DNA of 64,000 bases from a virus: IMG/VR virus record IMGVR_UViG_3300028902_000264, one strand, 5' to 3'. Made by a program: the position numbers and the translations under genes. Positions 10,277 through 46,846 of this stretch are shown here, piece after piece. A model generated the notes under the pieces. That model ran no database searches. It saw only the letters and a program-made list of their open reading frames with translations, and had not been told where the DNA came from. Position 1 is the first letter of the stretch. Each line of letters opens with the position of its first letter.

Positions 10277-10305
10277 TTGACGGAGCAACGGGGCGGGCTT
10301 ATATC
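10277..10305 (+). promoter_or_regulatory. sigma70-like promoter
   Basis: GGGGG-TTGACG-N17 (GC-rich)-TATATC, 9 nt before the RNA ligase ATG. Confidence 0.7.
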
Positions 10306-11873: not shown

Positions 11874-11883
11874 AGGAATAAAA

Positions 11884-15438: not shown

Positions 15439-15440
15439 AA

Positions 15441-18998: not shown

Positions 18999-19002
18999 AA
19001 CA

Positions 19003-19257
19003 ATGGCAATAAAATTCTTCGAAGTGGTTGATAAACAAGGACTAAATAAAATAACCGACAAAGATCTTTTTTATATTTTTGTTGTGGATGAAACTACTGG
19101 AAGTTATGGCATGGAACTTGCTACGGTGTCCGAGGACATTGCGCTTGCGACGGCGAGTGTTTACGCTCGTGTGAGCAAGCCTTGCGTGTGCCTTTTTAAA
19201 AAAGGAACAAAACTGTTTACTGTGAATCAAGACGGCACAAAACTTCTTCTCGGATAA
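19003..19257 (+). CDS. Small hypothetical protein inside the array
   Basis: 84 aa, fills the gap between members 2 and 3. Confidence 0.6.
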   Translation: MAIKFFEVVDKQGLNKITDKDLFYIFVVDETTGSYGMELATVSEDIALATASVYARVSKPCVCLFKKGTKLFTVNQDGTKLLLG

Positions 19258-19263
19258 ACAGCA

Positions 19264-22971: not shown

Positions 22972-22992
22972 ACAATAAAGGAATGTCTAATA

Positions 22993-26217: not shown

Positions 26218-27821
26218 CAGAAACAAAAGAAACAATAGATGTATTGGTTGACAATAAACATATAAGATCTTTCGACTTAGAAAGGTTGACGAAACACATC
26301 TCTATATTTGATTTTTACTCACTTCCAGTGTCTGAAATTCCCAATACAAAACATGATTTTGTCTTTTTATCAAAAGATGATAGCAGCACTGGTGCTACAA
26401 TTTATGATAAACGAGACAACCGCGCATATTATAGTGCTGTAGTAAAACCTTATTCTGGCTATAACAAAATCGAATATTACAATTTTGCTGGGGATGGTTT
26501 GAAAAGTTTCAACAGAGACAAGAAAAACTGGTTTGATTTTCAGTCTGAATTGGTTGAACTTAAAGAAGAGGAAGGGACTCCTGGATTTAAGATTCCAAGA
26601 TTCATTAAGAATCTTATTCCCAAGGGAATGAAAATCCAAAAGTGGGATTACAATGCTTTATCTTCAACCAAAGAAAAGTGTTATTTTGTGAACTATGTTT
26701 CCGATCAATTTATCGAATTTTTTGAGTTCGATCCCGAAGAATATAAAAAGTCCAACCGCTATTATTGGTCTAGTCAATATCATTATAAAAATGTTTCCCA
26801 ACCTAAAATAACACATACAACTTATTCAATTGATAAAAAATCACAATCTTTTGATTGCACTTCCGTTTACATTAACGGAAAACAAATTCTTGAAAAAGAA
26901 GCCTTTAAAATTAAAGCAAAATATGATATCGATAAATTTCGAGATATTGAAAATCGGTTTGGAACAAGATTTAAACAAAAAGTTTATGATAAACTTTCCA
27001 AGGCGGCAATCGAAAATTTCGAGGCTGCACTAAAAACAAACGAAAGTAAAAAGTTAACATATATGGTTACTGAACGAGATGTTTGGGATTTGGCATTTGG
27101 TCCCCTTAAACAGGGTATCCACCACACATCTTCGGATAAACAAATTGAAGCGTTTGTGAACTTAGTAAACTCTTACTACGAGATTCTTAAAGAAGATAAA
27201 ATGGCCTCAAAAGAGGCATTGACAACAACTGGTCCAGTGACTACGTTGAACGATAAACAACAAAACGGCGACACGGAAACTCTCCAGGAGAAAAATAAAA
27301 TGGCAATAACCGCAAAAGACAAGGTTCTTCAAATTGCAATTTCTGACGGACAAGAGGTTGCAAAACGAGTAGCGACAAAACAAATCTCAAAACTAATGCA
27401 AGATACTCTTGTTAAGGCTCTGACTCAAGACCTTAAAGGCAAAAAGAAATCTGACACAAAAACTGCTCTCGAAGAATTTTTTGCTTCGGAAAAAGGAATG
27501 GCAGTAATTCAAGTATTTTGTGGTGTTGGTCTACCATTTGTACAAAAATATATTCCTGAAAAGTATCACAGCAAACTTACAATGATTTCTGATGAGATGA
27601 GAATTCAAGGTGAAACAACCGCTGCGCTTGAATTAATTGGGGCGGTAGAACCAATGATTAAAATGGCAGCAGGAGGTATTATGGATTCTTTGAATCAATT
27701 CTCTGCTGCAGAAGAATTTGTAAGAATTGAGACCTCTTCTGTTGAGTCTGTAAGAACAGACAATCAAAAAGAAGCTGAAGTTGTCGAATTGGCCTCTGCA
27801 AAAGAAAGAGCAAAGGCTTAA
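26214..27821 (+). CDS. Shared-CTD family member 5
   Basis: 535 aa. Central domain, one repeat, CTD AISDGQEVAKR...EMRIQGET. Confidence 0.85.
   Translation: MTETKETIDVLVDNKHIRSFDLERLTKHISIFDFYSLPVSEIPNTKHDFVFLSKDDSSTGATIYDKRDNRAYYSAVVKPYSGYNKIEYYNFAGDGLKSFNRDKKNWFDFQSELVELKEEEGTPGFKIPRFIKNLIPKGMKIQKWDYNALSSTKEKCYFVNYVSDQFIEFFEFDPEEYKKSNRYYWSSQYHYKNVSQPKITHTTYSIDKKSQSFDCTSVYINGKQILEKEAFKIKAKYDIDKFRDIENRFGTRFKQKVYDKLSKAAIENFEAALKTNESKKLTYMVTERDVWDLAFGPLKQGIHHTSSDKQIEAFVNLVNSYYEILKEDKMASKEALTTTGPVTTLNDKQQNGDTETLQEKNKMAITAKDKVLQIAISDGQEVAKRVATKQISKLMQDTLVKALTQDLKGKKKSDTKTALEEFFASEKGMAVIQVFCGVGLPFVQKYIPEKYHSKLTMISDEMRIQGETTAALELIGAVEPMIKMAAGGIMDSLNQFSAAEEFVRIETSSVESVRTDNQKEAEVVELASAKERAKA
27219..27247 (+). 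promoter_or_regulatory. Intragenic promoter upstream of the CTD of member 5
   Basis: TTGACA-N17-TACGTT, AGGAG at 27286-27290, in-frame ATG at 27300. Confidence 0.7.
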
Positions 27822-27856
27822 TACCAAAAGAAAATTTTCTTCTACTATTATACCTT

Positions 27857-27887
27857 AAGCCAGTTTATTCTGGCTTTTCTTATTTTT
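27857..27887 (+). terminator. Intrinsic terminator
   Basis: AAGCCAG-tttatt-CTGGCTT stem followed by TTCTTATTTTT. Confidence 0.7.
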
Positions 27888-27918
27888 GGGCCAAAAAAGG
27901 ATGTAAGAAATACAAAAC

Positions 27919-29922
27919 ATGTCTTCAAAAAAACAGTACACAACAGAACAAGAATTTTTAAAAGGAGTAAAAACATTTATTGACAAGTCGGTTCCAGTTG
28001 GAACCCAAACTGGTTGGAGAGAATTTGCAGGTGGCTACGTTCACTATGTTAATGGTCATATGCAAAATGATCCAACCTTGGGTGTTGCGGTTGTGAAGTT
28101 TAGTGTCGATGGAAACTTAAAAACTGAAGAGTTTCGCGAAAAAGGTCATAGACATAGATTAGATGGCCCCGCGGTTGTTGAATATTCTCTGAACGGAGGC
28201 ACCCTAAAAGAAGAATATTACATAAATGGAATAAACTATGATTATACAACATATCAAGCAAAAGCTAAAGCTGCTGCCCCGAAACCAACATACCTAGAAT
28301 TTGGTAAGTTAAAAATTAACATAAACAGTCTTGAATCTGCTTTTGGAGACTCTCTAAAAAAAGATGCTAACGGAAACATTACGAATGTTAGACTTTTAAA
28401 GGAATCAAAAAAATCTTATGGTAGTATAAGATATGATCTTCTTGACAAAGAGACGATTTATGTTAACCATAACATGGTTTTTAGAAATGTTTATGATCCA
28501 ATTAAACCCTGTGTTTATTCATTTGACACTAACGGTATAGTAGATAACCCAGAATATTACACAGAGCCGCATTCAAGAGTTGACAACTGGAAATCTGCGG
28601 TATTTAAACCAAATCCTAAATCAACAACAGGAGTTCCTCTCTGGATTGAATTTCATGAGTTTCCTCAACTTGGACTTACCAAAGATGTAGTTGTTCAAGA
28701 ATATAAAACCGCAGCTGCTTTGAAATTGGTCTTGGATGATTTCATGTCTCCATTTAACAAGTCTCCATCTTTGTTTTATGTCTATCAAGATAATTTTTTC
28801 TATGTGTTAAAAGATCATGCAAATAATTTAATTTATGAAAAGAGAATTCCTCTAAGGCCAAGCCTTGCAAAAAATGATACCGAGATTGACATGTCTTGGG
28901 AATCAGAACCAACAACTTATTTGAAAGCTGGATATGTTGCGGGAGTTACTTCGAAACCTGTTTCAATTTCGAAAGAAGAATTTATGAGATCTCACCAAAT
29001 CTTAACAAAACAAAAAACCGCGATAGTTCAAAACGCATCCCCAATAACAGCGCAAGTCCCAACAGTTCAAGTGGCAAGTCCTGATTTTATTGGAAAAGAA
29101 ACGTTTAGTAAAATTGCGGTTGAACTTGGTAAAATGGGTTATAATGTTGTTCCATCGGTAGGAAAAGATGGATCGATTGAATTAAAGTTTGAACCAACCA
29201 TTTTAAATGGTTCAGGATCTATGGCTTCCGCTCCTTTTTTGGATTCGGGATCTATGTCTAAGGTTTGGGATTCAGAATCTAAACTTTCTATTCCTCTTTT
29301 GGTTTCTGGAGCTGCGCCAATAGGTCAACAACAGGTTAATTTATATGTTACATCAACTGTTGATGCCAAGGACATATCAAATCTGTTTGAGAAAAAAGCT
29401 CCAAGCCCGCCGCAACAAAATAAATTTATTCAAGTTGCCAAATCCGATGCTAAAGAAGTTGCAAAAAGAATTGCTGCAAAACAAGTAACTTCATTCGTCC
29501 ATGACATGTTGGTAAACTTTCTAACAAACAAACAAAAGAAAGCAAAAACAGAAATAGAAAACTTTCTTATGTCTGAAAAAGGAAAGGTGTTGCTTGGATT
29601 TGCGGTCGGGGCAACGATACCACTAATAACAAACCACTTCCCAGAAAAGTATAGGGAAGCTTTGATGGAAATAGGTTCCGAATTTAGGGTTCAAGCAGAA
29701 ACAGAAGTTGCGGTTGAGATTACAGATAACGTTATTTCGCCATTCCTCGCTCAGCTAGGGACAGGGCTGTCAGCCTTCGAGGTCTTTTCTGGAAATAATG
29801 CTGAAAAGGTGAGGGTGGACGTTGGCGAGAGCTTGACAGCTAGCTCGACAAGCTCTATAGAGGATGAAGCGGAGCTATTAGAGAAAATAGAAGTTGAGAA
29901 AAACCAAAAAACTCTGAACTAG
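27919..29922 (+). CDS. Shared-CTD family member 6, with an N-terminal HRLDGPA unit
   Basis: 667 aa. HRHRLDGPAVVEY; CTD AKSDAKEVAKR...EFRVQAET...EKVRVDV. Confidence 0.85.
   Translation: MSSKKQYTTEQEFLKGVKTFIDKSVPVGTQTGWREFAGGYVHYVNGHMQNDPTLGVAVVKFSVDGNLKTEEFREKGHRHRLDGPAVVEYSLNGGTLKEEYYINGINYDYTTYQAKAKAAAPKPTYLEFGKLKININSLESAFGDSLKKDANGNITNVRLLKESKKSYGSIRYDLLDKETIYVNHNMVFRNVYDPIKPCVYSFDTNGIVDNPEYYTEPHSRVDNWKSAVFKPNPKSTTGVPLWIEFHEFPQLGLTKDVVVQEYKTAAALKLVLDDFMSPFNKSPSLFYVYQDNFFYVLKDHANNLIYEKRIPLRPSLAKNDTEIDMSWESEPTTYLKAGYVAGVTSKPVSISKEEFMRSHQILTKQKTAIVQNASPITAQVPTVQVASPDFIGKETFSKIAVELGKMGYNVVPSVGKDGSIELKFEPTILNGSGSMASAPFLDSGSMSKVWDSESKLSIPLLVSGAAPIGQQQVNLYVTSTVDAKDISNLFEKKAPSPPQQNKFIQVAKSDAKEVAKRIAAKQVTSFVHDMLVNFLTNKQKKAKTEIENFLMSEKGKVLLGFAVGATIPLITNHFPEKYREALMEIGSEFRVQAETEVAVEITDNVISPFLAQLGTGLSAFEVFSGNNAEKVRVDVGESLTASSTSSIEDEAELLEKIEVEKNQKTLN
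29833..29861 (+). promoter_or_regulatory. Promoter embedded in the 3' end of member 6
   Basis: TTGACA-gctagctcgacaagctc(17)-TATAGA, 71 nt before the ATG of member 7. Confidence 0.7.
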
Positions 29923-29932
29923 GAAACTCGCA

Positions 29933-31492
29933 ATGGAAATCCCCAAGATAGATTCGATCATAGAAAACGATTCGTTTCTCTCTTCGAGAGATGAAGTTGA
30001 AAAAGAAATTATTAAACTGGTCAATTGTAAAAAAAAAGACGAGTTTCAAACAAAGTTAAATGAGCTGGCCAAGAAATATCGACTTAATATAAGAAACTCA
30101 GGTTATGAATATGAGCTGTCCTGGCAAGACAGCCCTGCAAATACCATAAAACTACTTCCTTTTAGAATTTTTACATGGTTTTCTGGAAATGATTCTATGG
30201 ATAGTTCCGAACTTAACTTGCCTGAAATACTCGTTGAGCTCTTACCAAAAAAAGATAATTTTGTTAAACACGTCGAGGTTTCCAGATCGTATGGCGGTGA
30301 TTTTAGTTCATTCTTTTGTAGCACAGGTTTCGTAAAAGCAACTTCGTATACAGAGTTGGTTTCAAAAATTGTTTACCGAATAAACCAAACCATAAAAGTT
30401 AGTCTTTATTGGGATATCAAAAATGATATTAAAAGTAAAACCTTTTTTAGCGACTTTCTTAGGAACTATTCAAGTATTTTTGACATTTATTTTAATAAAG
30501 AAAATAAAAACGAAATAGTTTTCGCCTATGAAAAAAAAGAAAATAAGATTGTTTTCGATTTTGAATCTGCTCCAAAAGAATTTCAAAGTTGTTTGTTAAA
30601 AGAAATTTCTTCAGATCCTCAGAAAACTCTCATTACTATGACATATTTGAACGGAGCCGTTGAAACTTATAAGTGCCAAAGCAATACGATTCTTAGAAAA
30701 GAACCTCTTGTGAATGGTAAAGATCACTGCGAAACGGGTCCCGCAAAAGTTTTGTACAGATACAACAGCGCCAGCGATACATTTGTTTCTGCAGAAGAAC
30801 ACTACTTTCTTAACGGAAAAAGATTTTCTTCAAAAGAAGAATGGACTAAAGCTGTCGAAGCTTTAAACAAAGAAAAAGAGACGGTTACTTCGAGGGGCTT
30901 GACTACTCCCGCGACAGTAGCTACTGTCAACCATCGGTCGGAAACTCCAGTTCAAACCATAGAAAAGGAAAAAAGCACAATGAGTAAAGTTCTTGATACG
31001 GTAAAGAAAGACGGTCGCGAAGTTGCCAAGCGTGTTGTTGTGACGAAGGCAACAGAAGCGGTTACAAGCGCTCTCGCGAATATGATTTCTCCTGGCAATG
31101 ATAAGAAAGCGTCGAGCACGCGCAAATCGGTCGAAGAAGCCCTGAAAACTCCTGGTGGAAGGGCTGTTGTGTCTTTTATGATGGGAGCAATTGTTCCCGT
31201 CGTTGAAGATAAGATTCCCGAAAAATACCGCGCAATCGCTTCGGAAGGTGGACAAGAGGCGCGTGTCCAAGCAGAAGTATATTTTACAGGCGCGATTGTT
31301 GAACAACTTGCGAAACCTGCAATGAAGGCTGCTTTGGGAGGAATTCAAAGCAGTCTCGACAAAGTTATCGAGAGCGAAACAACCGAAATTCGCGCGGATC
31401 TTCCAGCGGCGAAAACCGCCCCCGAACTTTCAGAAGTTAATGTTGAGACCGCGAAGGCTTCTCTCGCGGGAAAGAAGTCAAAGGTAGATTAA
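29933..31492 (+). CDS. Shared-CTD family member 7
   Basis: 519 aa. Degenerate DHCETGPA unit; CTD VKKDGREVAKR...EARVQAEV. Confidence 0.85.
   Translation: MEIPKIDSIIENDSFLSSRDEVEKEIIKLVNCKKKDEFQTKLNELAKKYRLNIRNSGYEYELSWQDSPANTIKLLPFRIFTWFSGNDSMDSSELNLPEILVELLPKKDNFVKHVEVSRSYGGDFSSFFCSTGFVKATSYTELVSKIVYRINQTIKVSLYWDIKNDIKSKTFFSDFLRNYSSIFDIYFNKENKNEIVFAYEKKENKIVFDFESAPKEFQSCLLKEISSDPQKTLITMTYLNGAVETYKCQSNTILRKEPLVNGKDHCETGPAKVLYRYNSASDTFVSAEEHYFLNGKRFSSKEEWTKAVEALNKEKETVTSRGLTTPATVATVNHRSETPVQTIEKEKSTMSKVLDTVKKDGREVAKRVVVTKATEAVTSALANMISPGNDKKASSTRKSVEEALKTPGGRAVVSFMMGAIVPVVEDKIPEKYRAIASEGGQEARVQAEVYFTGAIVEQLAKPAMKAALGGIQSSLDKVIESETTEIRADLPAAKTAPELSEVNVETAKASLAGKKSKVD
30899..30927 (+). promoter_or_regulatory. 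Intragenic promoter upstream of the CTD of member 7
   Basis: GAGGGGC-TTGACT-N17-TACTGT, AAGGA at 30965-30969, in-frame ATG at 30980. Confidence 0.7.
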
Positions 31493-31599
31493 TTAAATTT
31501 CCTAAACAATAAAAATTTTTTGGCTTGGATTGGAGTAACATCTTCCGAGCTTTTTGTGTTTGGGATTTAGTTTTCTACCTCATACAAAGGTCCAATGTG

Positions 31600-33981
31600 A
31601 TGAAAGAACAAAAAATCCTACCAGAAAAGGAAATTAAAGAATGGGTTGAGTTTATTCCAAAAGAAAATAGAGCTAAATTAGAAGATTTTCGAAGTTTTAG
31701 AATAGACACCCCTGGATGGAATATTATTGAACACAAAGGTAAACCTCTTTTTGCTGTGTACTGCGATAAGAGAAACACTATAAATTCCGACAGCCACGGT
31801 CCTGCATATGTTGTGTTGGACAACATTGACTATGTTAGCAAAGAAATGGAGAAAGTGAATCTCTCGGGTTTTAAACACCTAAAAGAATATTTCTTTGACA
31901 ATTTAATTGAATTAAGTGAGGAAAGGTATAGAGAAATATTGATTGATTCAACTGGATCGGATGCGGGTGTTTGGACAACACCAACAGAACGAAAAGAAAA
32001 ATTAGAAAAATCTTTACCTAAAGAAGAAATTAAGGAATGGATTGAGTTTATTCCAAAAGAAAATCACGTTCCAATTTCTGGCTATGAAACCAGATATCAG
32101 TTTAAACCAGGCTGGTACCTCATTTATGATGATGAAAATGGCAATAAGCCAATGTTTTGTGCATATTACGATGCTAGTTGTGATGATTTTATAAACCATT
32201 CAGGTCCTTCACATATTGCGCTAGATAATATTGATGTTGTAAACAAGTTTATGGACAAACATGATTATGAGCCTTTTAAATATTTAAAAGAATACTCTAC
32301 TGAAATGCTTGACTTTGTTTCTCTAGAAGAGTTTAAAAAAGAAACAGGATACGATTCCGATAAATTATATGATACTCCAAGCGGATATAAAAAGTTGTTT
32401 GGAAAACAAGACAAACTTTCAAAGAACCCTCTTTCAAAGAAAGAAATAGAACAGTGGCATAAGATAATTCCAGAAGATCATTTTTTATCTCTGGATAATT
32501 TTGCAGAAGAAAATTACGAAACTGAAGAAGATGGTTGGTATCTTGTTGCAAAAGATAGTAAATCCAGTCCTCTGTTTTGCTTTTATCAAGAATGCGGCAT
32601 CCCCGCTAAAAACTCAAATGGTCCAGTTTATGTTGTTTTAACTGATAATTTAGAAGAACTAAACAAAATGATGACCGAGCGAGATTGTGTTCCATTTATT
32701 GCATTTAAAGAATTTGTCCAAAATAATTTGTTTTTTAATGAAACTAAATTTCGAGAAAGAATGATTTCCAAAAATGGAACGGACAAGGATGTTTGGACGA
32801 CACCAAAAGAGTACAGAGAGATTCAAAAACTCAAAGCAAAAGAAGAAGAAGGAGATAATAAAGACATGGCAACACCAAAGAAAACAAAGACTTCGACTGG
32901 TTTGACCAGCGAACAAAAGGAGCATTATCTTAAGCTCGCGGAGGCGGCAGGAGCAGAAAGAGTCCCATCGGAAGATTTTGAAAATGTAGCATATAATAAG
33001 CCTTATATTGTTCTTGCAGGAGAAAATGCTTTAGGGGATCTAAAAGAAGAAGATCCAATTGCTATTATTTATTATTCCAGCGAAGGAGACATTCATAATT
33101 TGTTTGGACCAGCATTGATTGATCTTCTTGAAGGTAAAGAACTTGAAGAAGATTTCCATGAAGAGATTTCTCACCATTTTTATAACGGAGGAGAAACGAA
33201 AGAAGAGTATTGGTTAGATGGCAACAACTATACTTTAAGCGCTTGGAAGAAAAACGCGAAAGCACGAATTGAAAATGTTTTGAAGATGGGATTTGTTTTA
33301 CCAGAAACCTGCCCCGATTATCTGGTTCCTGATGGTTACAAAAAACCATCCTCTGTTTCGACAGAAAAGAAACCAACTGTTTCTGGTTCAAAACCTGCCT
33401 CTGGTGGTTTCAAGGCAACAGTTAAATCAGATTTGAGCGCAGTTGCAACAAGGGTTGCTGTTAAAAAATCAACAGAACTGTTTTCTGGATTGATTGTTGA
33501 TTTTCTTGCCTCGAACAAAAAGGGCAGCGAAGCAACAGCAATGAAAAAGAAAGTCAAGGATCTTCTTTCAACAGAAGATGGAAAGGCTGCTTTCCAAATT
33601 CTTATTGGAGCGCTTCTTCCTCTTATGACAAATTCCGATAAGATTCCAGAATCAATCAAAGATGTTATGGAAACAGTTGGAAAAGGATTCCGAACGGATG
33701 GAATGACTCACTTTGCTGTTGAATTTGTTGATTATCTTTCTGGTCCTGGTGCGGAAACTTTCAGAAACACAATCGTCAAGGCATTCGAGGGTTTCAAAAA
33801 ACTCGATGACATGACGAACGAAAAAGGAGAAATTAATGTTCGAGCTATTGCTGAACCAACTCTTTCCTTGTTGACAATGACAGGGACAAAAGAAACCGAA
33901 AAAAATGAAGAGGAGCTTGATTATGTTGAAACAGATGTTGGTGCCGCGAAAGCGAAATTGAATGCAATGAGAAAGAATTAA
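31600..33981 (+). CDS. Shared-CTD family member 8, with three approx. 135-aa repeats
   Basis: Repeats start LPEKEIKEWVEFIPKEN / LPKEEIKEWIEFIPKEN / LSKKEIEQWHKIIPEDH. CTD VKSDLSAVATRVAV. ATG 31600 preferred to TTG 31525. Confidence 0.82.
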   Translation: MKEQKILPEKEIKEWVEFIPKENRAKLEDFRSFRIDTPGWNIIEHKGKPLFAVYCDKRNTINSDSHGPAYVVLDNIDYVSKEMEKVNLSGFKHLKEYFFDNLIELSEERYREILIDSTGSDAGVWTTPTERKEKLEKSLPKEEIKEWIEFIPKENHVPISGYETRYQFKPGWYLIYDDENGNKPMFCAYYDASCDDFINHSGPSHIALDNIDVVNKFMDKHDYEPFKYLKEYSTEMLDFVSLEEFKKETGYDSDKLYDTPSGYKKLFGKQDKLSKNPLSKKEIEQWHKIIPEDHFLSLDNFAEENYETEEDGWYLVAKDSKSSPLFCFYQECGIPAKNSNGPVYVVLTDNLEELNKMMTERDCVPFIAFKEFVQNNLFFNETKFRERMISKNGTDKDVWTTPKEYREIQKLKAKEEEGDNKDMATPKKTKTSTGLTSEQKEHYLKLAEAAGAERVPSEDFENVAYNKPYIVLAGENALGDLKEEDPIAIIYYSSEGDIHNLFGPALIDLLEGKELEEDFHEEISHHFYNGGETKEEYWLDGNNYTLSAWKKNAKARIENVLKMGFVLPETCPDYLVPDGYKKPSSVSTEKKPTVSGSKPASGGFKATVKSDLSAVATRVAVKKSTELFSGLIVDFLASNKKGSEATAMKKKVKDLLSTEDGKAAFQILIGALLPLMTNSDKIPESIKDVMETVGKGFRTDGMTHFAVEFVDYLSGPGAETFRNTIVKAFEGFKKLDDMTNEKGEINVRAIAEPTLSLLTMTGTKETEKNEEELDYVETDVGAAKAKLNAMRKN

Positions 33982-33991
33982 AACAGTTTGG

Positions 33992-34531
33992 ATGAAACTT
34001 TGGGTTGTTAATAAGTTGAAAACAATCAAACTAACAGTGGGAGAATTACCTCCTGAAAACTTTACTGGTATTGTTGAGTGGGAAAACGAAAACAAAGAAT
34101 ATTATAAAAATGGAAAATTTCACAGAGAAGATGGACCAGTAGTTGAATGGAATAACGGATACAAAGAATGGTTTATAACTGGAAAACTCCATCGAGAAGA
34201 TGGACCAGCAATAATTTTTCCAAATGGAGATGAATACTGGTACAGAGAAGGAAACCAACACCGAATAAATGGACCAGCAGTTAAATACTCAAATGGCTCC
34301 TGTTACAATTGGATTATTGATTCATGGATCTATTATCCACATATTTTAAATTGGTATTTCGGTACTGCTCTTTACCTCGATAAAGAAAAAGGAAAATATG
34401 ATCTTGTGTGGTTAAAGTTCTTAACAGAAAGAGGAATAGAAGAGTTTCCTATTATTCCAGGAATGGAACAAGACCTTCGGTTTAAAGAAGTTTTTGATAA
34501 GTTTCTTTGCTCGCAAAAGGAAATAAAATGA
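33992..34531 (+). CDS. HRxDGPA-repeat protein (3 repeats) with KEKG...PIIPG domain
   Basis: PENFTGIVEW, three repeats, conserved C-terminal domain. Confidence 0.85.
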   Translation: MKLWVVNKLKTIKLTVGELPPENFTGIVEWENENKEYYKNGKFHREDGPVVEWNNGYKEWFITGKLHREDGPAIIFPNGDEYWYREGNQHRINGPAVKYSNGSCYNWIIDSWIYYPHILNWYFGTALYLDKEKGKYDLVWLKFLTERGIEEFPIIPGMEQDLRFKEVFDKFLCSQKEIK

Positions 34532-35148: not shown

Positions 35149-35173
35149 ACCTAAATAAAGAAAGAAGAAACAA

Positions 35174-38985: not shown

Positions 38986-39007
38986 AACTTTGCGGTTTTA
39001 CTGCCTC

Positions 39008-39035
39008 TTGACAGTCTCTCGGTTGTGGTTATTGA
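39008..39035 (+). promoter_or_regulatory. sigma70-like promoter
   Basis: CTC-TTGACA-N16-TATTGA, then GAGG SD and ATG 39052. Confidence 0.55.
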
Positions 39036-39051
39036 GGGAGAGAGGTAATTC

Positions 39052-39405
39052 ATGCGATGCAACGGCGAAAGACTGCTCGATATGGCAACAGGCATTGCTG
39101 TTTGGCGCGCGCAAACAAGAGAACTTAATTTCAAACACGGAGCCGCAGCTCTAAGAGCCGATGGTAAATTTGTTACCTCATACAACGAAAAGGCACAGGC
39201 TCCAACATGGAAAGTTCACGCAGAAGCAAGAATTTGTCGCAAAATTGATGTTGGGGCAATTGTTGCTGTTGTCAGGATTGGAGACAAAGGTATTTGGATG
39301 CCTTCGAAACCTTGTGGCGGTTGTATGCGCTGCATGAAAAGAAAAGGGGTCGAAAAGGTTTATTACTCAATTGGTAAAGATGAATACGGCGTCATGGTTC
39401 TCTGA
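39052..39405 (+). CDS. Zn-dependent cytidine/nucleotide deaminase fold protein
   Basis: HGAA, YNEK, VHAEARIC (HxE), SKPCGGC (PCxxC), VYYS. Confidence 0.85.
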   Translation: MRCNGERLLDMATGIAVWRAQTRELNFKHGAAALRADGKFVTSYNEKAQAPTWKVHAEARICRKIDVGAIVAVVRIGDKGIWMPSKPCGGCMRCMKRKGVEKVYYSIGKDEYGVMVL

Positions 39406-39423
39406 CGAAAGGAATACGCTTAA

Positions 39424-40296
39424 ATGCAAGAAAACTATACTCCGAATCCTGGTGTTGTCCCTTCCGCCGAAGAACTTGATAAATTCCTAAATCTTCCAGA
39501 TGGAGATAGTTTTGAATCTATTGAATTTGGTGTTCTTTCTAACTACTTTGATGGATCAAAGTTTATTTACAGAAAATCAAAAGTGATCAATCGGGGCAAT
39601 TTACACGAAAACGCAATTAAAAACATTAAACCATTTCTGATTAAACAAATTAGCAATCTTATTGCTGAATGTTTCTCAAAACTTAAAACATCAAACGACA
39701 CAAAAAATGATTACAACGAAACTCTATATATTAGAGTCGAGGTTCCTGGGCAGCTTGATAAATTAATTGTGTGTAAACATCCGATGCTCGCCGAAGCAAA
39801 ACTTGTTTCAAACGAAAAAGAAATTGTTTCTTCTGATACTGTTAAGTTTATTACAGAGGAAATAAGCAATTTTCAATCTGCTATGTTTGAAATGTATATT
39901 GTTCACTTGGAAAATCTCACAAAAAAATTGCTTGACGATTCTCCTGAAATTGATTTTGTTGTTTTTTCTAGATTCCTCGACACTGTATATCTCTATTCCA
40001 TTGAATATGAATTTCCCAATGGGGCAGCAAAACTAAAAAAAGAAGGCTATAAAATTGCTAATGGAATTGCCAATGAGACCTTTATGTCTTTTCTTGCACT
40101 GTCGTATAATTTGTTTTGGTTTCGAAATGGAAAAATGGCTTATGGTAAAACAGACGATATAGTTTTTCAACTTTCTCAAAACTACAACAAATATATTGAA
40201 ACAAAATGTTTGTCGACGAGAAAAGTTCTAATTGAAACAATTATTTCGGCTGAAAAGGCATATTTTCAAATTAGGAATGAGGAGCCTAAATGGTAA
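39424..40296 (+). CDS. Hypothetical protein, paralog of 41372..42193
   Basis: DDSPEIDFVV / FRNGKMAY versus EENPDIDFVA / NRNGKIAF. Confidence 0.7.
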   Translation: MQENYTPNPGVVPSAEELDKFLNLPDGDSFESIEFGVLSNYFDGSKFIYRKSKVINRGNLHENAIKNIKPFLIKQISNLIAECFSKLKTSNDTKNDYNETLYIRVEVPGQLDKLIVCKHPMLAEAKLVSNEKEIVSSDTVKFITEEISNFQSAMFEMYIVHLENLTKKLLDDSPEIDFVVFSRFLDTVYLYSIEYEFPNGAAKLKKEGYKIANGIANETFMSFLALSYNLFWFRNGKMAYGKTDDIVFQLSQNYNKYIETKCLSTRKVLIETIISAEKAYFQIRNEEPKW

Positions 40297-40793
40297 AGCA
40301 AATCATTGTGACAGATCGAGAAACTGCAAAGGTAATAGTTCCTCAGTTAAAAAAGCTTGGGGAAAAAGTTGCTTGGATTACCATTGCAAACGATCAAAAG
40401 AAACGACTTGTTTCTGGTGGTAACAAACATACTTTGCCTTTGTTTTTTGATGATATCACAGACAAAACAAGTCGGAAAGCATTTACAAAAAATCTTGCAA
40501 GAAAAGTAAAGAACTTTATTTTTAATCATCATATAAACAACTCTCAAGAGTTTATCCTTGTTGTGAATTGTATGGCGGGGATTTCTCGTTCGTCTGCGAT
40601 TGGAAAGTTTGCGGAACTTAAGTTTGGAATTCCAGCTAGGTACACAGAACTTGAGGCAAAAAGAATGATTGCTCCAAATCATCTTGTTTTGAAACTTCTT
40701 GGTATGGAACAATATACGAGAGATGATTCTCTTACAGAATACCACGAAGAGTATGGATATGAAGATTATGGTTCTTACAGAGGATTCATATAG
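40290..40793 (+). CDS. Protein tyrosine/dual-specificity phosphatase-like protein
   Basis: CX5R P-loop VVNCMAGISRSSAIG, LFFDD, PNHLV. Confidence 0.8.
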   Translation: MVKQIIVTDRETAKVIVPQLKKLGEKVAWITIANDQKKRLVSGGNKHTLPLFFDDITDKTSRKAFTKNLARKVKNFIFNHHINNSQEFILVVNCMAGISRSSAIGKFAELKFGIPARYTELEAKRMIAPNHLVLKLLGMEQYTRDDSLTEYHEEYGYEDYGSYRGFI

Positions 40794-40819
40794 TTTAATT
40801 TTCTTAGAAAGAAAACAAA

Positions 40820-41189
40820 ATGAAAACAAAAGACCTAATCGAAAAACTTCAGAAACTTGACCCAACTGGAGAGATTCATGTTTGTATTGATAACCATGAT
40901 ATCTTTTCCGTTTCTCTTAATCCCGCTTATTGGGATGGAACTTTACAAGTTTTGTTAAGAGATCCTTCAAAAGAACCATATTATGATGTTAAAGGTCTTA
41001 GGTTTGTTGTACACGGAAATAAAATATTTAGGATTAGAAGAAATTATCAGAGAAGACATGGATGCCGAAATTGATGTTTCAGATTTACCCGATTACCGAA
41101 AGACCTCCAAACTTTTGGAGATTGAAAACTTCAAACAGAAAATAGTTCAAGAACAAGAAACAAGAGAAGCTAAACAAAAAGGAAAATAA
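40820..41189 (+). pseudogene. Hypothetical gene split by an apparent +1 frameshift near 41015-41030
   Basis: Two overlapping ORFs (40820-41074, 40983-41189). Protein-like sequence passes from ...VVHGNKI to KYLGLEEII... in the next frame. Confidence 0.45.
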
Positions 41190-41190
41190 A

Positions 41191-41361
41191 ATGTTCAACT
41201 TCGAAAAAAATAGAAATGATATGAGAAACTCGTTTGAATCATCACAGCGATCTTTTGGAAAAATTTATCTTTTGACTTTGCTTGTTAACCTTTTAATTGT
41301 TTTTGCTATTATTGCCGCGGTTGTTTTCGTTGCTCTTAAAATCCTCGAAAAAATTGGATAA
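41191..41361 (+). CDS. Small membrane protein (56 aa, not in ORF track)
   Basis: AAGGA SD; MFNFEKN...IYLLTLLVNLLIVFAIIAAVVFVALKILEKIG. Confidence 0.6.
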   Translation: MFNFEKNRNDMRNSFESSQRSFGKIYLLTLLVNLLIVFAIIAAVVFVALKILEKIG

Positions 41362-41371
41362 TAAACTATAA

Positions 41372-42193
41372 ATGATTTCGGCGGCAAACCCACCAAAACT
41401 AGAATTTTTCACAACTGAAATTGCTAATCAAATAGCCTTTTTTGATAAAGGAGGTGAATTTGAAGTTACTCTCTTTGCAAAATCTCTTAAACAAGAAGGA
41501 AAAGACCTTGATAGGTCAAGTAGATTTCCTTATTATAAAAATATAGAAAAAACTCCAACATCGGAAAAAACTAAAGCGTTAATAATCCAATCTCAAATTA
41601 ACTCTTTTATTAAAAGAATAATAGCTAAAGACTACAATAAAAAAAATAGCGGCGAAAACTATTATGAAGACCTTGTTTGCAAGATTAAAAATCTTTCCGA
41701 AAACTTAGAATACACATTTACTAAAACAGGAAAAATACCTGTTGACAAGCAAAAAACAAAAATTGAAATAATAACCGATTCTCTTAATCAAGAACATGTT
41801 TTATCAGACCTTGAATCTCACTTGGATAAAGTTTATGAGATGGATTTAACAAAATATAAATTTTATTTGGAGTGCCTCATAAACTCTACAAGTATCTTCT
41901 TTGAAGAAAATCCTGACATTGATTTTGTTGCGATTATAGATGGCTCACTTCATTTTGGAATAGTAGATACGAATAGAACCTTTTATAAAGAAAAGGTTTT
42001 GTTTCCTCCCTCTTTTTCTCAAAGAGATTGTTGCATAAACAGAAATGGAAAAATTGCATTTATTCGCCCTGCGTGGTATATTGCTGAAAAATTTCACGCA
42101 GAGTTTAAATCAATAGATTCTCTAATAGAAACATATAAAAAAGCTCAAGAAAGAAATAGGAGGCATAAAGCTTTTGGACGGCAAAATTATTGA
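41372..42193 (+). CDS. Hypothetical protein, paralog of 39424..40296
   Basis: Shared motifs as above. Confidence 0.7.
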   Translation: MISAANPPKLEFFTTEIANQIAFFDKGGEFEVTLFAKSLKQEGKDLDRSSRFPYYKNIEKTPTSEKTKALIIQSQINSFIKRIIAKDYNKKNSGENYYEDLVCKIKNLSENLEYTFTKTGKIPVDKQKTKIEIITDSLNQEHVLSDLESHLDKVYEMDLTKYKFYLECLINSTSIFFEENPDIDFVAIIDGSLHFGIVDTNRTFYKEKVLFPPSFSQRDCCINRNGKIAFIRPAWYIAEKFHAEFKSIDSLIETYKKAQERNRRHKAFGRQNY

Positions 42194-42632
42194 AACATCC
42201 CTCTTGGTGAGGACCGAAATAGAAAAGTTTGCCCTAAAGAATAACTCAATAGGCAATCCAGTAACTCTTGAATGTTATTGTGCTATAGCGAGTTATTCCT
42301 TAAACAAAACTTTTAAAGCTCTTAAACTAGATTCTAGTTTTGTTACTGGATTTTATTATGATTCAGTTTCGAACTCGAAAAGCTTTCATTGTTGGGTCGA
42401 ATATGACCAATCCATTATTGATATTACTGCTACACAGTTTGGAATCAAACACAGAGTTTATATTCCTAAATTGCCTTGTGAAGATTATCTTGAAGACTTA
42501 AAAGATGGAAGGGCAACAAAATATATTAATGAAAACTGGCATCCAAATCAAACAATTAAACAAAATTTAAATCAAATAAAAGAAATTGTAAAGGTTACTT
42601 CAAAGTCCGCCAAAAAACTTATATTTAGTTGA
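42174..42632 (+). CDS. Transglutaminase/papain-fold-like protein
   Basis: Putative triad: CYCAIAS, FHCWVE, IIDITATQF. Confidence 0.55.
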   Translation: MDGKIIETSLLVRTEIEKFALKNNSIGNPVTLECYCAIASYSLNKTFKALKLDSSFVTGFYYDSVSNSKSFHCWVEYDQSIIDITATQFGIKHRVYIPKLPCEDYLEDLKDGRATKYINENWHPNQTIKQNLNQIKEIVKVTSKSAKKLIFS

Positions 42633-42645
42633 GAAGGTAAAGTAA

Positions 42646-43218
42646 ATGCCCAAAAAAATTTATAGAATGAATTTAAAAGAGTTTAAACAACTCATGCTTA
42701 TGGCCCTTAATGAAGGAATTGAAGAGCTTTCTGACGAATCAGAAGGTTCGGGACAAATTGGTTTGGATTTAGATGAAGTTGTTCCAACACTTATCCCACC
42801 AGAAAGAAAAAGATTTGAAGAATTGAAAAATAAAAAGAAAGCTGGATCTTTGTCTGATCAAGAGAAAAGAGAATATCTTGCTCTTTTACAAAAAGACGTT
42901 AAATTAAAATCCGATGCTGGCAAACAACGCACAGATTCAATGTTTAGCAAACTTCCTGATGCTCAACCAACCTCTGCGGCAAAAGCTATTTCCGAAAACT
43001 TTAGCCAACAAACTTCACAAGTACAAGGTTCAGCGGGGAAAAAACTTCAAACAAAAATGGATAAAGTTCCTGGTTTAGAACAAATAATTGGGGCAGTAAA
43101 ACAAAAAGGCGATGCTGCGGTTGTGTTAAAAGACCTTGCTCAACAAATCGGAGGAGACAAGCTTCCAGCCGATCAAATTTTAGCAAGAGCATATAGTTTA
43201 GCCAAAAAAGAAAAATAA
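42646..43218 (+). CDS. Helical hypothetical protein, possibly virion-internal
   Basis: 190 aa. N-terminal MNLKEFKQLMLMALNE followed by an acidic stretch. Confidence 0.65.
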   Translation: MPKKIYRMNLKEFKQLMLMALNEGIEELSDESEGSGQIGLDLDEVVPTLIPPERKRFEELKNKKKAGSLSDQEKREYLALLQKDVKLKSDAGKQRTDSMFSKLPDAQPTSAAKAISENFSQQTSQVQGSAGKKLQTKMDKVPGLEQIIGAVKQKGDAAVVLKDLAQQIGGDKLPADQILARAYSLAKKEK

Positions 43219-43219
43219 G

Positions 43220-43262
43220 CCTCTATGGGGACGGATAGAGGACTCGCCGCAGCTAGCGCGGC
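43220..43262 (+). other. Tandem GC-rich hairpins
   Basis: CCTCTAT-N8-ATAGAGG and GCCGC-N7-GCGGC right after the stop. No clear U-tract. Confidence 0.5.
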
Positions 43263-43299
43263 AACAATCTAGAATTAATTGTGAATAGCCTGCAAGGGG

Positions 43300-43327
43300 T
43301 TGACTGGCTAGCTTGCGACCTTATGCT
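43300..43327 (+). promoter_or_regulatory. sigma70-like promoter
   Basis: GGGG-TTGACT-N16-TATGCT. Confidence 0.65.
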
Positions 43328-43373
43328 AGCTCTAGCGGATTCCGTTTTTCAATTCTCACAGGAGAGAAACAAA

Positions 43374-43781
43374 GTGAATAAGAAATATCTCGCCGAGGTA
43401 AGTTTTGATGAGTTTGTTAAAAATGTAGATGATGAAACTATACAGTCAGAATTTGACGATGCAAACTATCAACTTGCCTTAGCGGCAGAAGTAACAGAAG
43501 AAATTTTTAAAAAAGCAATGGAAATTGTTTTGCTTGATGGAAGATGGGGAATGAAAGAAGAGGATTCTGTTCTTTCTCTCTCGGAAGCAAGAGAGGTTGT
43601 TGAAAAAGCTTACAGAAGGTTTCAACCAAAAACTGAAGAGTTTGAATTCTTTAGTTCAGGTGTTAATTTCTGGGAAGAAGATGATACTGGGTGTTTGCTT
43701 CCAAATGCTTGTCTTCGACAAAGGACTGTTGTTGAGAAAATTTACGAAGGATATAGACAAATCTACGGAAGTAATCCATGA
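43374..43781 (+). CDS. Acidic hypothetical protein
   Basis: GTG 43374 after AGGAG. The longer ORF call overlaps the promoter. Confidence 0.6.
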   Translation: MNKKYLAEVSFDEFVKNVDDETIQSEFDDANYQLALAAEVTEEIFKKAMEIVLLDGRWGMKEEDSVLSLSEAREVVEKAYRRFQPKTEEFEFFSSGVNFWEEDDTGCLLPNACLRQRTVVEKIYEGYRQIYGSNP

Positions 43782-44263
43782 CAAACATAATCTTTCTTGA
43801 TGTTGATGGAGTATTAAATTCTGATTCTTATCACTATGATTCAGGTAAATGGACTCAAAGACAAAGGGATCAAATTGATCCTGCTTCGATTCCTTTACTT
43901 AATAAAATTATCGAGGCAACAAATGCAAAAATAGTTGTTTCTTCAACCTGGAGGATTCTTTATTATGATATTCTGATTGAAATTCTTAAAGACATGGGGT
44001 GTATTGGAGAGGTTATCGACTCAACTCCTCAAACTCATTTTAAAGCAAAGAAATACCGACACTGCCAAAGGGGCATGCAAATTCAAGAGTGGCTAGATAA
44101 CAATTCCATAAAGTTTGAAGTTGATGGATTTGTGATTTTAGATGATTCAACCGACATGGGGCACTTAACAGATAAACTTGTTAAAACAAATCCTCTTTGT
44201 GGTATAAGACAAGTAGATGTTGATAAAGCAATAGAGGTGTTAAACAGTAAATGCAAGTCTTAA
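43778..44263 (+). CDS. HAD phosphatase (Swiss-Army-knife RNA-repair type)
   Basis: IIFLDVDGVLNS, IVVSSTWR, RGMQIQEWL, FVILDD. Confidence 0.85.
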   Translation: MTNIIFLDVDGVLNSDSYHYDSGKWTQRQRDQIDPASIPLLNKIIEATNAKIVVSSTWRILYYDILIEILKDMGCIGEVIDSTPQTHFKAKKYRHCQRGMQIQEWLDNNSIKFEVDGFVILDDSTDMGHLTDKLVKTNPLCGIRQVDVDKAIEVLNSKCKS

Positions 44264-44649
44264 AACTAAAACTTAATGAATACATTCCCGACAACTATAC
44301 AGGAATTGTTAAATGGGGAAATGGAATCAAAGAATGGTATAAAAATGGCAACCTTCATCGAGAAGATGGACCTGCTGTTGAATTCTCAAACGGAACAAAA
44401 TATTGGTATATAGAAGGTTTGCTTCACCGAGAAAACGGCCCAGCTATTGAATATTTTGATAAATCAAAAATATGGTCTATTGAAGGAGAAGAGTATCATA
44501 TGTACTCTCTACTTAGTTATTTTAAATATAATATTTTCTTAAACAGGGAAATAGGAAAATATGGACTTGTGTGGTATAAGTTTTTAACAAAAAAAGGAAT
44601 TGAAGAAATTCCTTTCTTTCCAGGAATGACAATTCCATCCGAAGAATAA
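44251..44649 (+). CDS. HRxDGPA-repeat protein (2 repeats) with conserved C-terminal domain
   Basis: PDNYTGIVKW; GKYGLVWYKFLTKKGIEEIPFFPG. Confidence 0.85.
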   Translation: MQVLKLKLNEYIPDNYTGIVKWGNGIKEWYKNGNLHREDGPAVEFSNGTKYWYIEGLLHRENGPAIEYFDKSKIWSIEGEEYHMYSLLSYFKYNIFLNREIGKYGLVWYKFLTKKGIEEIPFFPGMTIPSEE

Positions 44650-44679
44650 ACATTTAAGAACAGCCTGTTTTGGGTGCTC

Positions 44680-44707
44680 TTGACAGGGTGCCGTGCGTGC
44701 TTATAGA
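44680..44707 (+). promoter_or_regulatory. sigma70-like promoter
   Basis: CTC-TTGACA-gggtgccgtgcgtgct(16)-TATAGA. Confidence 0.65.
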
Positions 44708-44753
44708 GGCATGGTAGCTCGTTGTCTTTTCCCAATAACAACGGAGTCCATAA

Positions 44754-44918
44754 ATGCAAGTCAAGCAATTCAAAATCGTCGAAGGGGATCGGTGGTTTTA
44801 TATTGAGATTCAGCCACTAGTCGGCGAATCTTACAGGATTTCTTCGTTCACTTCAAAGAAGTGCGCAGAAGATTATATTAAGGATAATGGAATTCAGGTG
44901 GCAAAACCAGGAAATTGA
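44754..44918 (+). CDS. Small protein (54 aa, not in ORF track)
   Basis: GGAG SD; MQVKQFKIVEGDRWFYIEIQ...FTSKKCAEDY. First gene after the promoter. Confidence 0.6.
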   Translation: MQVKQFKIVEGDRWFYIEIQPLVGESYRISSFTSKKCAEDYIKDNGIQVAKPGN

Positions 44919-44930
44919 AAAACGGAGAAC

Positions 44931-46832
44931 GTGGTGAAACTTTTCTCTGTTCAACCAATAAAAAGAAGGGCTTTCGTTGAAGCTATGGAATACAAAACCG
45001 ACACATTCGAGCCAGCTGAAATGCCAACGAGGTTGACCAAAGAAATGGAAACCTTGAAACTTAAACCACTGGAATTAATTCCACCGAGGTTTACAGGAAT
45101 TATTGAATTTGAATCAGGAACTAAAGAATGGCGAAAAAATGGATCGCTTCATCGGAATGATGGACCAGCGGTTGAATATTGGAATGGAACCAAACATTGG
45201 TATACCGAAGGAAAACGCCACCGAATAGATGGACCTGCTATTGAATGGGCAGATGGAACAAAAGAATGGTGGATTAATGGAAATCTTCACCGAGAAGATG
45301 GCCCAGCTATTGAATGTGAAGATGGAGAAAAATTATGGTTTTTAGATAATAAAGGATATTCCGAAGAAGATTTTAAGAAAGAAATTGAAAAAAGAAATCA
45401 AACTTCATCCAACCAAATGGAGAACACCATGAAGGTCATAAAGCAAAGAGAGGGACTCCCGCTACCAGAAGAAAACTATACAGGAATTATTGAATGGGAA
45501 GATGGAACTAAACTATGGTACAAAGATGGAAAACAACATCGAGAAGATGGCCCCGCGGTTGAATGGGCAGATGGATCAAAAGAATGGTATGTAGAAAATG
45601 AACGGCACCGAATTGATGGTCCTGCGGCTGAATATCCAAATGGAAATAAAGCATGGTGGCTTAATGGAAAATATTATTCCGAAGAAAATTTCAAAAAAGA
45701 GGTTGAAAAAAGAAATCAATCAAAACAGCCCAAACCACAAGGAGAAAATATGATGAAAACAATCAAACTGAAGTCATATGAAAATATTCCTAAAAACTTT
45801 ACTGGTCTTGCGGAATACGAATCAGGAAATAAATATTGGAGTAAAGAAGGAATCTATCATAGACTGGATGGTCCTGCTATTGAGTATGCAAACGGATATA
45901 AAGCATGGTTTAAAGAAGGAAACCGTCATAGAGAAGATGGTCCAGCAATTGAATATCCAGACGGATTAAAAGAATGGTTTAAAGAAGGAAACCGTCATAG
46001 ATTAGATGGACCTGCAATTGAATGGGTAAATGAAAAAAAAGAATGGTGGGTTGAAGACAAGCGGCATAGAATAGATGGTCCAGCAGTTGAATATTCAAAT
46101 GGAGATAAAGAATGGTATATTGAAGGAAAATATTATTTCGAAGAAGATTTCAAGAAAGAAATTGAAAGAAGAAACCAGAAAAACATTAACTCAGAAACAA
46201 ACATCAAAACCGAAATTGCTGCTCCCTTGACAGCCTCCGCGGCAAGCCTCAAGAGTGAAGGTACACCAGCAAGCGAGGAAAAGAAAATGACAAAAAGCAC
46301 GAAGGAAAAGGTTTTTGAGATTGCAAAGTCCGATGCGGTTGAAGTCGCAAAGCGTGTTGCGGTTCAACAAATCAGCAACATCATACAAGATTTGTTGATT
46401 GAATTGATTTCTTCTGGAAAGAAAGGGAAGCAAAAAACTGCTTTGAAGTCTAACCTCGAAGAATTCTTTTCTTCGGAGGCTGGTCGGGCAATGGTAAAGT
46501 TTGCCTCGGGTTTGATGTTGCCGCAATTGGCGACGTACGCCGCCAATTATGGAATGTTGAAACCTCAACATGTTATGATTGTTCAAGTTCTTTCGGAGGA
46601 AATGAGAATTCAGGGGGAAACAGACGCAACCCTTCATGTTATTGATATGGTAACGCCAATGCTCTCGATGCTTACATCGGGGATGACTTCTCAGTTTGGA
46701 AGTTTGTTTTCCTCTTTCGAGGAAACCGTTGAACCTGTTAGGGTTGCTCTTGATTCTGGTGTTGAATCCAATTCAACACACGAGGAAACTGTTGGTTCTT
46801 CTGCGGTTGCCTTGAAAACCGCGATGGGTTGA
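44931..46832 (+). CDS. Shared-CTD family member 10: three HRxDGPA modules (3+2+4 repeats) fused to the CTD
   Basis: Each module ends YxEEDFKKEIExRNQ. CTD AKSDAVEVAKR...EMRIQGET...EPVRVAL. True start may be 45045. Confidence 0.85.
   Translation: MVKLFSVQPIKRRAFVEAMEYKTDTFEPAEMPTRLTKEMETLKLKPLELIPPRFTGIIEFESGTKEWRKNGSLHRNDGPAVEYWNGTKHWYTEGKRHRIDGPAIEWADGTKEWWINGNLHREDGPAIECEDGEKLWFLDNKGYSEEDFKKEIEKRNQTSSNQMENTMKVIKQREGLPLPEENYTGIIEWEDGTKLWYKDGKQHREDGPAVEWADGSKEWYVENERHRIDGPAAEYPNGNKAWWLNGKYYSEENFKKEVEKRNQSKQPKPQGENMMKTIKLKSYENIPKNFTGLAEYESGNKYWSKEGIYHRLDGPAIEYANGYKAWFKEGNRHREDGPAIEYPDGLKEWFKEGNRHRLDGPAIEWVNEKKEWWVEDKRHRIDGPAVEYSNGDKEWYIEGKYYFEEDFKKEIERRNQKNINSETNIKTEIAAPLTASAASLKSEGTPASEEKKMTKSTKEKVFEIAKSDAVEVAKRVAVQQISNIIQDLLIELISSGKKGKQKTALKSNLEEFFSSEAGRAMVKFASGLMLPQLATYAANYGMLKPQHVMIVQVLSEEMRIQGETDATLHVIDMVTPMLSMLTSGMTSQFGSLFSSFEETVEPVRVALDSGVESNSTHEETVGSSAVALKTAMG
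46227..46255 (+). promoter_or_regulatory. Degenerate intragenic promoter upstream of the CTD of member 10
   Basis: TTGACA-gcctccgcggcaagcct(17)-CAAGAG, GAGGA at 46275-46279, in-frame ATG at 46287. Confidence 0.5.
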
Positions 46833-46846
46833 ATCAACAGGAGGAA

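Follow-up and report, generated by a model that had tools for sequence, protein, structure and literature searches.

Promoter-like elements translated as linkers suggest nested in-frame genes for the C-terminal domain of a phage protein family

The window analysed in this study, a stretch of 64,000 nucleotides (nt) of viral DNA, corresponds, in reverse complement, to positions 323758-387757 of a virus record of 390,884 bp (IMG/VR record IMGVR_UViG_3300028902_000264), which has 141-bp terminal repeats and a content of guanine plus cytosine (GC) of 33% and of which near-identical DNA is present in bioreactor, wastewater and activated-sludge metagenomes. Thirteen open reading frames (ORFs) of this genome end in a common domain of about 150-170 amino acids, which is located at the C-terminus of every member and is thus referred to as C-terminal domain (CTD). 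Ten of them reside within the window, and the numbering up to 10 that had been used in an earlier note on this DNA accordingly holds for the window, with the genome total being 13. In three of these genes, members 5, 7 and 10, the region ahead of the CTD contains a promoter-like element, a Shine-Dalgarno (SD) sequence and an in-frame ATG, which suggests that the domain is probably also made alone.

All genes and elements of the family in the window are found on the plus strand. The full fused ORF of member 5 (26214-27821) encodes 535 residues comprising an N-terminal domain, a linker and the CTD. Its promoter-like element TTGACA-N17-TACGTT (27219-27247, with N17 denoting a spacer of 17 nt), translated LTTTGPVTTL, is followed by the SD sequence AGGAG (27286-27290), a 9-nt spacer and an ATG at 27300 (27286-27302 from SD to start codon), which opens a nested CTD-only ORF of 173 residues (27300-27821). 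Behind the common stop, a hairpin (27857-27876) and a T-run together resemble an intrinsic terminator (27857-27886). In member 7, whose fused ORF encodes 519 residues (29933-31492), the element GGGGC-TTGACT-N17-TACTGT (30899-30927), translated LTTPATVATV, precedes the SD sequence AAGGA (30965-30969) and an ATG at 30980 (30965-30982), and the nested ORF of 170 residues (30980-31492) shares 61% identity with P0035, a stand-alone homologue of the domain. Member 10 (44931-46832, 633 residues) is composed of repeat units and the CTD. Its element CCC-TTGACA (46227-46256), translated LTASAASLKS, combines a spacer of 76-78% GC with a weak -10, for which CAAGAG at N17 and AAGAGT at N18 are both poor candidates, and it is followed by the SD sequence GAGGA (46275-46279), an ATG at 46287 (46275-46289) and a nested ORF of 181 residues (46287-46832). 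All three short ORFs are in frame with the long ORF and share its stop, and the SD sequences, 7-10 nt 5' of the internal ATG, are conserved in orthologs. The letters, positions, in-frame starts and lengths that the earlier note had listed for these motifs were all recovered, and so was the terminator that it had placed at 27857. Two further details that it had pointed out hold for members 5 and 7 and for the near-identical contig L007 but look incidental: the distance of 52 nt between -10 and ATG varies between 30 and 55 nt in other orthologs, and the sequence CGGAAACTC, present in both leaders, is not found in the more distant ones.

The combination of these signals is rare. ORFs of 150 or more residues on this strand contain 780 internal ATGs in frame, of which 31 are preceded by an SD pentamer at the right distance and four have in addition a TTGAC[AT] 40-130 nt upstream, three of the four belonging to members 5, 7 and 10. 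The elements can be compared to a class of promoters found in the intergenic DNA of the phage, which consist of a G/C-rich run, TTGAC[A/T/G], a spacer of 16-17 nt with about 65% GC and frequently GTGGC or GTGCT at its end, and TAnnnT. A strict form of this motif (TTGACN-N16/17-TAnnnT, with a spacer GC of at least 47%) was counted 18 times on one strand and 3 times on the other, where a second-order Markov model predicts 1.7 for each. Of these 21 occurrences, 14 are intergenic, in a genome with 8% intergenic DNA. Chance occurrence of the motif triple, which the earlier note had named among the observations that would together speak against its proposal, is therefore not what the counts suggest. 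When about 780,000 positions were ranked with a scoring matrix trained on intergenic sites alone, the elements of member 10 (rank 27), member 7 (rank 28) and member 5 (rank 33) scored level with intergenic promoters that had been left out of the training, the score of member 10 coming from the -35 and the spacer and not from the -10. Besides one match without TTGAC in a GC-rich stretch, the top 33 positions include four sites deep within genes, and downstream of each there is an in-frame ATG preceded by a purine run resembling an SD sequence.

The elements were traced through related phages using contigs fetched for close and distant orthologs, from which we aligned ten fused, split and stand-alone sequences of three paralog clades. 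TTGAC is the sole invariant block of this alignment, with the T of the -10 and the G of GTGGC being nearly invariant, and TTGAC, SD and ATG are retained in orthologs despite the wide divergence of the linker peptides. Member 5 is fused in the contigs L007, L006, L001, L003 and L005, with its frame open down to about 39-42% identity over the aligning region. The ortholog of member 10 in L009 carries TTGACA-N17-TAACAA. The fused ORFs themselves are evidently real, since no fused ortholog has a stop that interrupts the frame across the element.

A different arrangement is found for member 7, which is fused in L007 and L006 and split in L001, a contig that is syntenic with the window over member 5, member 6, member 7, member 8 and purA. 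In L001, a homolog of the N-terminal part of 273 residues ends in a stop and is separated by a spacer of 108 nt from a CTD-only gene of 174 residues. The spacer contains GGC-TTGACA-N17-TAGAAT together with SD and ATG and is homologous to the intragenic element of member 7, so that a stop upstream of the promoter, as the earlier note had suggested to look for in relatives, is indeed present. In the more distant contigs L003-L005, a CTD-only gene of 174 residues, whose product is recorded in at least 22 contigs, follows directly after a family member of 737 residues and is preceded by TTGACC-N17-TACGGT and GGAGG, which are located in an intergenic region of about 100 nt. Stand-alone homologs, likewise anticipated in that note, are represented by P0035, P0042 and P0081, which are located in the interior of contigs as genes of 173-174 residues; P0081 belongs to the clade of member 13 of the genome and has stops in all frames ahead of its gene. 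Four further candidates (P0019, P0086, P0116 and P0128) were not counted as stand-alone domains, as they lie at the ends of contigs and their frame is not closed upstream. The same four representatives make the nine changes to the label 'stand-alone' on the family tree an overcount.

The observation that the syntenic L001 divides member 7 into an upstream gene and a promoter-bearing CTD gene supports a scenario where fused and independent states of the domain interconvert. The clade of member 7 has the topology (P0042 free, (window fused, (L001 split, L006 fused))), on which a history that begins with fusion and one that begins with fission require two changes each. The capture of upstream genes by an independent CTD gene, which the earlier note had offered as one of two explanations, would thus be one direction of an exchange whose order is equally well described either way. 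Since the promoter is intact whether fusion or fission came first, its preservation argues for use in both states. The elements look as if they had been selected as DNA, and they are homologous to the promoters that precede independent CTD genes, which favours the other explanation of that note, the co-production of a free CTD.

The reading frame of the element distinguishes both states. In every fused copy, the -35 is read TTG-ACN, encoding Leu-Thr in frame 0, and no stop interrupts the sequence from the element to the ATG. Split and stand-alone copies have the -35 in a different frame, which contains one or two stops, and in L001 the -10 TAGAAT itself provides an in-frame TAG. These relationships reflect the geometry of the promoter. 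One frame places a TGA inside TTGACA, and in a second a codon begins with the TA of the -10, which permits TAA or TAG, whereas the Leu-Thr frame combined with a 17-nt spacer sets the T of the -10 at the third codon position and makes a stop impossible in either hexamer. The GC-rich spacer encodes Ala, Gly, Pro, Ser and Thr, and its translation accounts for the low-complexity character of the linkers. The proposal of the earlier note that the linkers are these promoters translated is thus borne out by an alignment where the one invariant block is read as Leu-Thr in fused copies only. It follows a simple frame rule that tells when a promoter can become a translated linker, and low-complexity linkers rich in Thr, Ala, Ser and Gly in AT-rich phage genomes can thus be read-through GC-rich promoters.

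Based on these sequence comparisons, we consider it likely that members 5, 7 and 10 each constitute two genes in one, a long fusion and a free CTD expressed from an internal promoter, and that these states interconvert. The long ORF would give rise to an N-terminal domain fused to the four-helix CTD, and the internal sigma-70-like promoter of the phage class, together with SD and in-frame ATG, to a short 3'-coterminal mRNA and a free CTD of 170-181 residues. In the case of member 5, this internal mRNA would extend over about 0.6 kb, end at the 27857 terminator and encode the CTD alone. In one state, an upstream gene would precede a separate CTD gene that has its own promoter, whereas in the other both would be fused and the former intergenic promoter would become a linker rich in Thr, Ala, Ser and Gly, which would be feasible only in the TTG-ACN frame. 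As a guess at its role, the free CTD might join the assembly or a partner of the fused forms and thereby set their stoichiometry.

Several observations weigh against this assignment. The nested start is absent in nine of the 13 paralogs of the genome, which are plain fusions, so that a free CTD is not required by every member. The -10 of the member 5 ortholog in L001 is degenerate (TTCGAC) and that of member 10 falls outside both the generic consensus and the phage class. A generic sigma-70 scan (TTGACA-N16-18-TATAAT, with at least 4 of 6 matches per hexamer and at least 9 of 12 overall) lists none of the three sites, because each -10 matches at three or fewer of six positions (two to three, compared to five to six in the -35), with the reservation that this consensus may not be that of the host. 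The orthologs comprise four to six lineages per member, and these share common ancestry. Finally, four wastewater sequencing runs of RNA or possible RNA provided, over 27000-46900, contigs of relatives that are 90-99% alike and silent on starts, ends and levels; one of these contigs, of 1.8 kb, covers 29673-31457 and thus extends across the element of member 7.

A more far-reaching interpretation assigns the CTD, existing as a free gene with a promoter of its own, a role as hub for assembly or localisation, to which any gene arriving upstream could be recruited by loss of its stop codon. The promoter, being free of stops in the Leu-Thr frame when its spacer is 17 nt long, would survive as linker and still yield free hub subunits. 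We regard this as a tentative proposal and rather doubtful in its full extent. If true, the family would constitute a natural and reversible tagging system, of which free, split, fused-nested and fused-plain states are all visible in relatives.

Unlikely in our view is a scenario where promoter, SD and ATG are inert scars of fusion, left behind by formerly independent CTD genes, and where only the long proteins are made. The stand-alone and split versions in relatives would be expected in this case, the -10 regions of member 10 and of the L001 ortholog of member 5 look decayed, and nine paralogs have lost any such signal. Against this stands the preservation of TTGAC, the 17-nt spacer, CAG-GAG and ATG in lineages of member 5 that have diverged to about 39-42% identity, and their preservation in rare codons: the SD sequence of member 5 is written CAG-GAG in four of four lineages, with CAG and GAG accounting for 16% and 15% of their codon families, and the Leu of the element is always encoded by TTG, which makes up 15.6% of Leu codons.

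Neutral scars should also have decayed in the family at large, where a methionine at the domain boundary is found more often than in the preceding sequence. In 119 fused representatives, clustered at no more than 50% identity, Met accounts for 4.45% of the ten residues ahead of the CTD compared to 1.36% of the preceding fifty, a 3-fold enrichment, and it is present at the boundary in 48 of the 119 (binomial p = 2e-13). About ten of these 48 contain a Leu-Thr 20-30 residues ahead of the Met; each of them falls into the clade of member 5, 7 or 10 or has no position on the tree. In the genome of the window, the fourth member with SD and ATG at the boundary is member 13, located outside the window, which has no TTGAC; such cases may be nested at the translational level only. 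About 40% of the fused members in a large family may thus encode a second, hidden product that is missed by standard annotation.

It appears quite improbable that the internal promoters, although real, serve the genes downstream while the in-frame ATG goes unused. Such an embedded operon promoter is suggested by a promoter-like TTGACA-N17-TATAGA in the tail of member 6 (29833-29861, matrix rank 59, translated LTASSTSSIE), 71 nt before the start of member 7, and further genes follow closely behind members 7 and 10. Contrary to this notion, the clean terminator after member 5 would leave an internal transcript that holds the CTD only, SD and ATG occupy a fixed place before the domain boundary in all orthologs, and in relatives the equivalent promoter appears plainly to drive a CTD-only gene. 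The element at 29833-29861 falls into the disordered tail of the CTD of member 6, where its translation reads SLTASSTSSIED, and CTD tails may thus also serve as promoters for the next gene.

Highly improbable, finally, is conservation at the level of the protein, with the Leu-Thr-rich linker as a functional peptide, either a flexible linker or a processing site, and an accidental likeness to promoters: fused copies do share a loose pattern [G/A/P]-L-T-x5-[V/I/S]-[A/T]-[T/S] and the phage encodes a T4-type prohead protease, but the DNA block is conserved untranslated, in another frame and with stops, in L001 member 7 and in L003/L005, the codon choice is fixed on rare codons, and the elements fit a promoter class that was defined from intergenic DNA alone.

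The structural properties of the CTD were investigated in a model of the nested ORF of member 5, which shows four helices and a disordered tail of about 30 residues at a predicted local distance difference test (pLDDT) score of 83. The tail contains a conserved E-x-V-R-V motif. A profile search of 1.84 billion proteins identified 681 relatives, in which the domain is again terminal, and the matches to the family come from uncultured phages only, with no relatives found by tblastn in 50,697 GenBank phage records. A single-protein search in viral contigs gave no confirmed match, the alignment being too divergent. In the ten members of the window, no Pfam domain covers the CTD and members 5-9 are without any Pfam family; the repeats of member 10 matched DUF6745, and member 1 gave a row of CPSase_L_D3 below threshold. 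PHROGs contained no family for three CTDs or for the N-terminal parts of members 5-7. Structure comparisons with the CTD model retrieved only generic folds and no convincing match, as reflected in helical-hairpin rows with E > 0.05 in Foldseek searches of PDB and BFVD and in generic helical hairpins only, with Z up to 7.2, in the VIA wide fold search; in the ESM Atlas template-modelling (TM) scores stayed below 0.4, and a feature search of the Atlas was without usable match. In a single job on self-association, the prediction of a two-copy complex reached a score of 0.28 compared to a mark of 0.42. A function of the CTD as membrane anchor was rejected, as the best 19-residue Kyte-Doolittle window, with a median hydropathy of 1.4, stays under the cut-off of 1.6 normally applied to transmembrane helices.

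Among the remaining family members of the window, members 1-4 are encoded by four ORFs of about 1,080-1,240 residues (11845-26217), in which boundary Met, SD and TTGAC are all absent, and members 6 (27919-29922, 667 residues), 8 (31525-33981, 818 residues) and 9 (37138-38985, 615 residues) bear the CTD without a nested start. The protein of 818 residues encoded by member 8 corresponds in L001 to one of 358 residues (L001:4842-5918), which matches only residues 453-817, and an N-terminal part may have been gained or lost in this member as well. The N-terminal repeat part of member 10 (44931-46200) differs in the number of units between strains, with the ortholog in L008 (L008:3001-3999) encoding 332 instead of 633 residues, and in contigs of related strains 555-1202 nt are skipped between its repeats, consistent with a lineage where adjacent genes readily join.

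The phage promoter class forms GC-rich islands, with about 30 sites in the genome that are nearly all intergenic. Its examples in the window are located at 10277, 39008, 43300, 44680 and 53211, and the intergenic site upstream of member 10, TTGACA-N16-TATAGA (44680-44707, plus strand), holds matrix rank 13. A fourth nested candidate, TTGACA-N17-TAAATT, ranks 17th in the genome and is found at window coordinate 123764 (about G000:C1:263994, minus strand). It resides deep within a primase-like ORF of 683 residues (window coordinates 122279-124330, outside the window), is read as Leu-Thr and is followed by a weaker purine run, AGGT, and an in-frame ATG from which the C-terminal approximately 175 residues would be made alone. 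At window coordinates of about 72000-81000, likewise outside the window, an unusually GC-rich stretch, with a composition unlike the remaining genome, is the source of many spuriously high scores in the promoter scan.

Since the genome scan found no promoter of the TTGACN class near the head genes, this class may mark early genes that are transcribed by the host polymerase. The T4-type late promoter TATAAATA is not enriched in intergenic DNA and was of no use for the timing of expression. The head genes themselves include a T4-type major capsid protein (Pfam Gp23, E = 3e-59, G000:C1:128399-130012) and a T4-type prohead protease (Peptidase_S77, E = 2.5e-24, G000:C1:133604-134068), both outside the window at window coordinates of about 254-259 kb and thus about 210 kb away from the region of the CTD family. 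As judged by these genes, the head module of the phage is T4-like, although the CTD family has no match in GenBank phages. The neighbours of the CTD-family genes function in nucleotide metabolism and repair, and the family genes themselves use the sigma-70-like promoter class. One of the genes in the window, encoding adenylosuccinate synthase (35174-37165), contains an insertion of about 317 residues (residues 259-576) that is absent from its 94%-identical ortholog in L001 (L001:6330-7352) and is consistent with an intein.

The arrangement described here has counterparts in well-studied viruses and mobile elements. In herpes simplex virus 1 (HSV-1), the UL26/UL26.5 locus contains a shorter in-frame 3'-coterminal gene with its own transcript, so that the C-terminal part exists as a free protein and as a fusion to the protease. 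Members 5, 7 and 10 resemble this locus in the in-frame 3'-coterminal short gene, in the internal promoter, which is predicted in our case, and in the shared C-terminal part. Unlike in UL26/UL26.5, no protease domain was found in the CTD family, either by Pfam in members 5-9 or by PHROGs in the N-terminal parts of members 5-7, its genes are located about 210 kb from the T4-like head genes, and the arrangement occurs three times in a paralog family of 13 members. A protease gene with an embedded in-frame scaffold ORF that has its own transcript is also known from Ostreid herpesvirus (PMC11565193). By sequence, the CTD family is not part of this protease-scaffold group, because it shows neither a protease domain nor the context of a head module, and the distance to the head genes weakens a role in scaffolding or capsid targeting of the type found in herpesviruses or phage lambda.

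In the lambda C/Nu3 pair, an in-frame internal start yields the C-terminal part as a separate protein, and to our knowledge Nu3 arises by internal initiation of translation on the mRNA of the longer gene, without an intragenic promoter of its own. In contrast, the internal start in members 5, 7 and 10 is preceded by a conserved promoter-like element, and the genes are found outside the context of a head module. In the transposon Tn5, the Tnp gene contains a further promoter and in-frame start, from which Inh is made, an N-terminally truncated protein that binds and regulates the full-length one. The likeness concerns the nested in-frame start with its own promoter, again predicted here, whereas Tn5 contains a single gene and not a modular family, and its truncation removes the DNA-binding end and not a whole variable domain. 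Internal promoters also occur in polymorphic effector-immunity loci, and immunity genes of the type VI secretion system of Vibrio cholerae, as one example, were described to have them within the coding sequence of the upstream modular gene (PMC3857813). The shared feature is a promoter embedded in an upstream modular gene that permits separate expression of what follows, and the difference is that the downstream product is another gene rather than an in-frame part of the same ORF.

Collectively, our analysis offers a rare view, at the level of sequence, of how modular phage proteins are built and dismantled, in which an intergenic promoter turned into a linker would keep its promoter letters. 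What appears to be new in comparison to the systems described above is the repetition of the arrangement within a large paralog family, the series of free, split and fused forms in relatives, and the frame rule by which a promoter can serve as linker.

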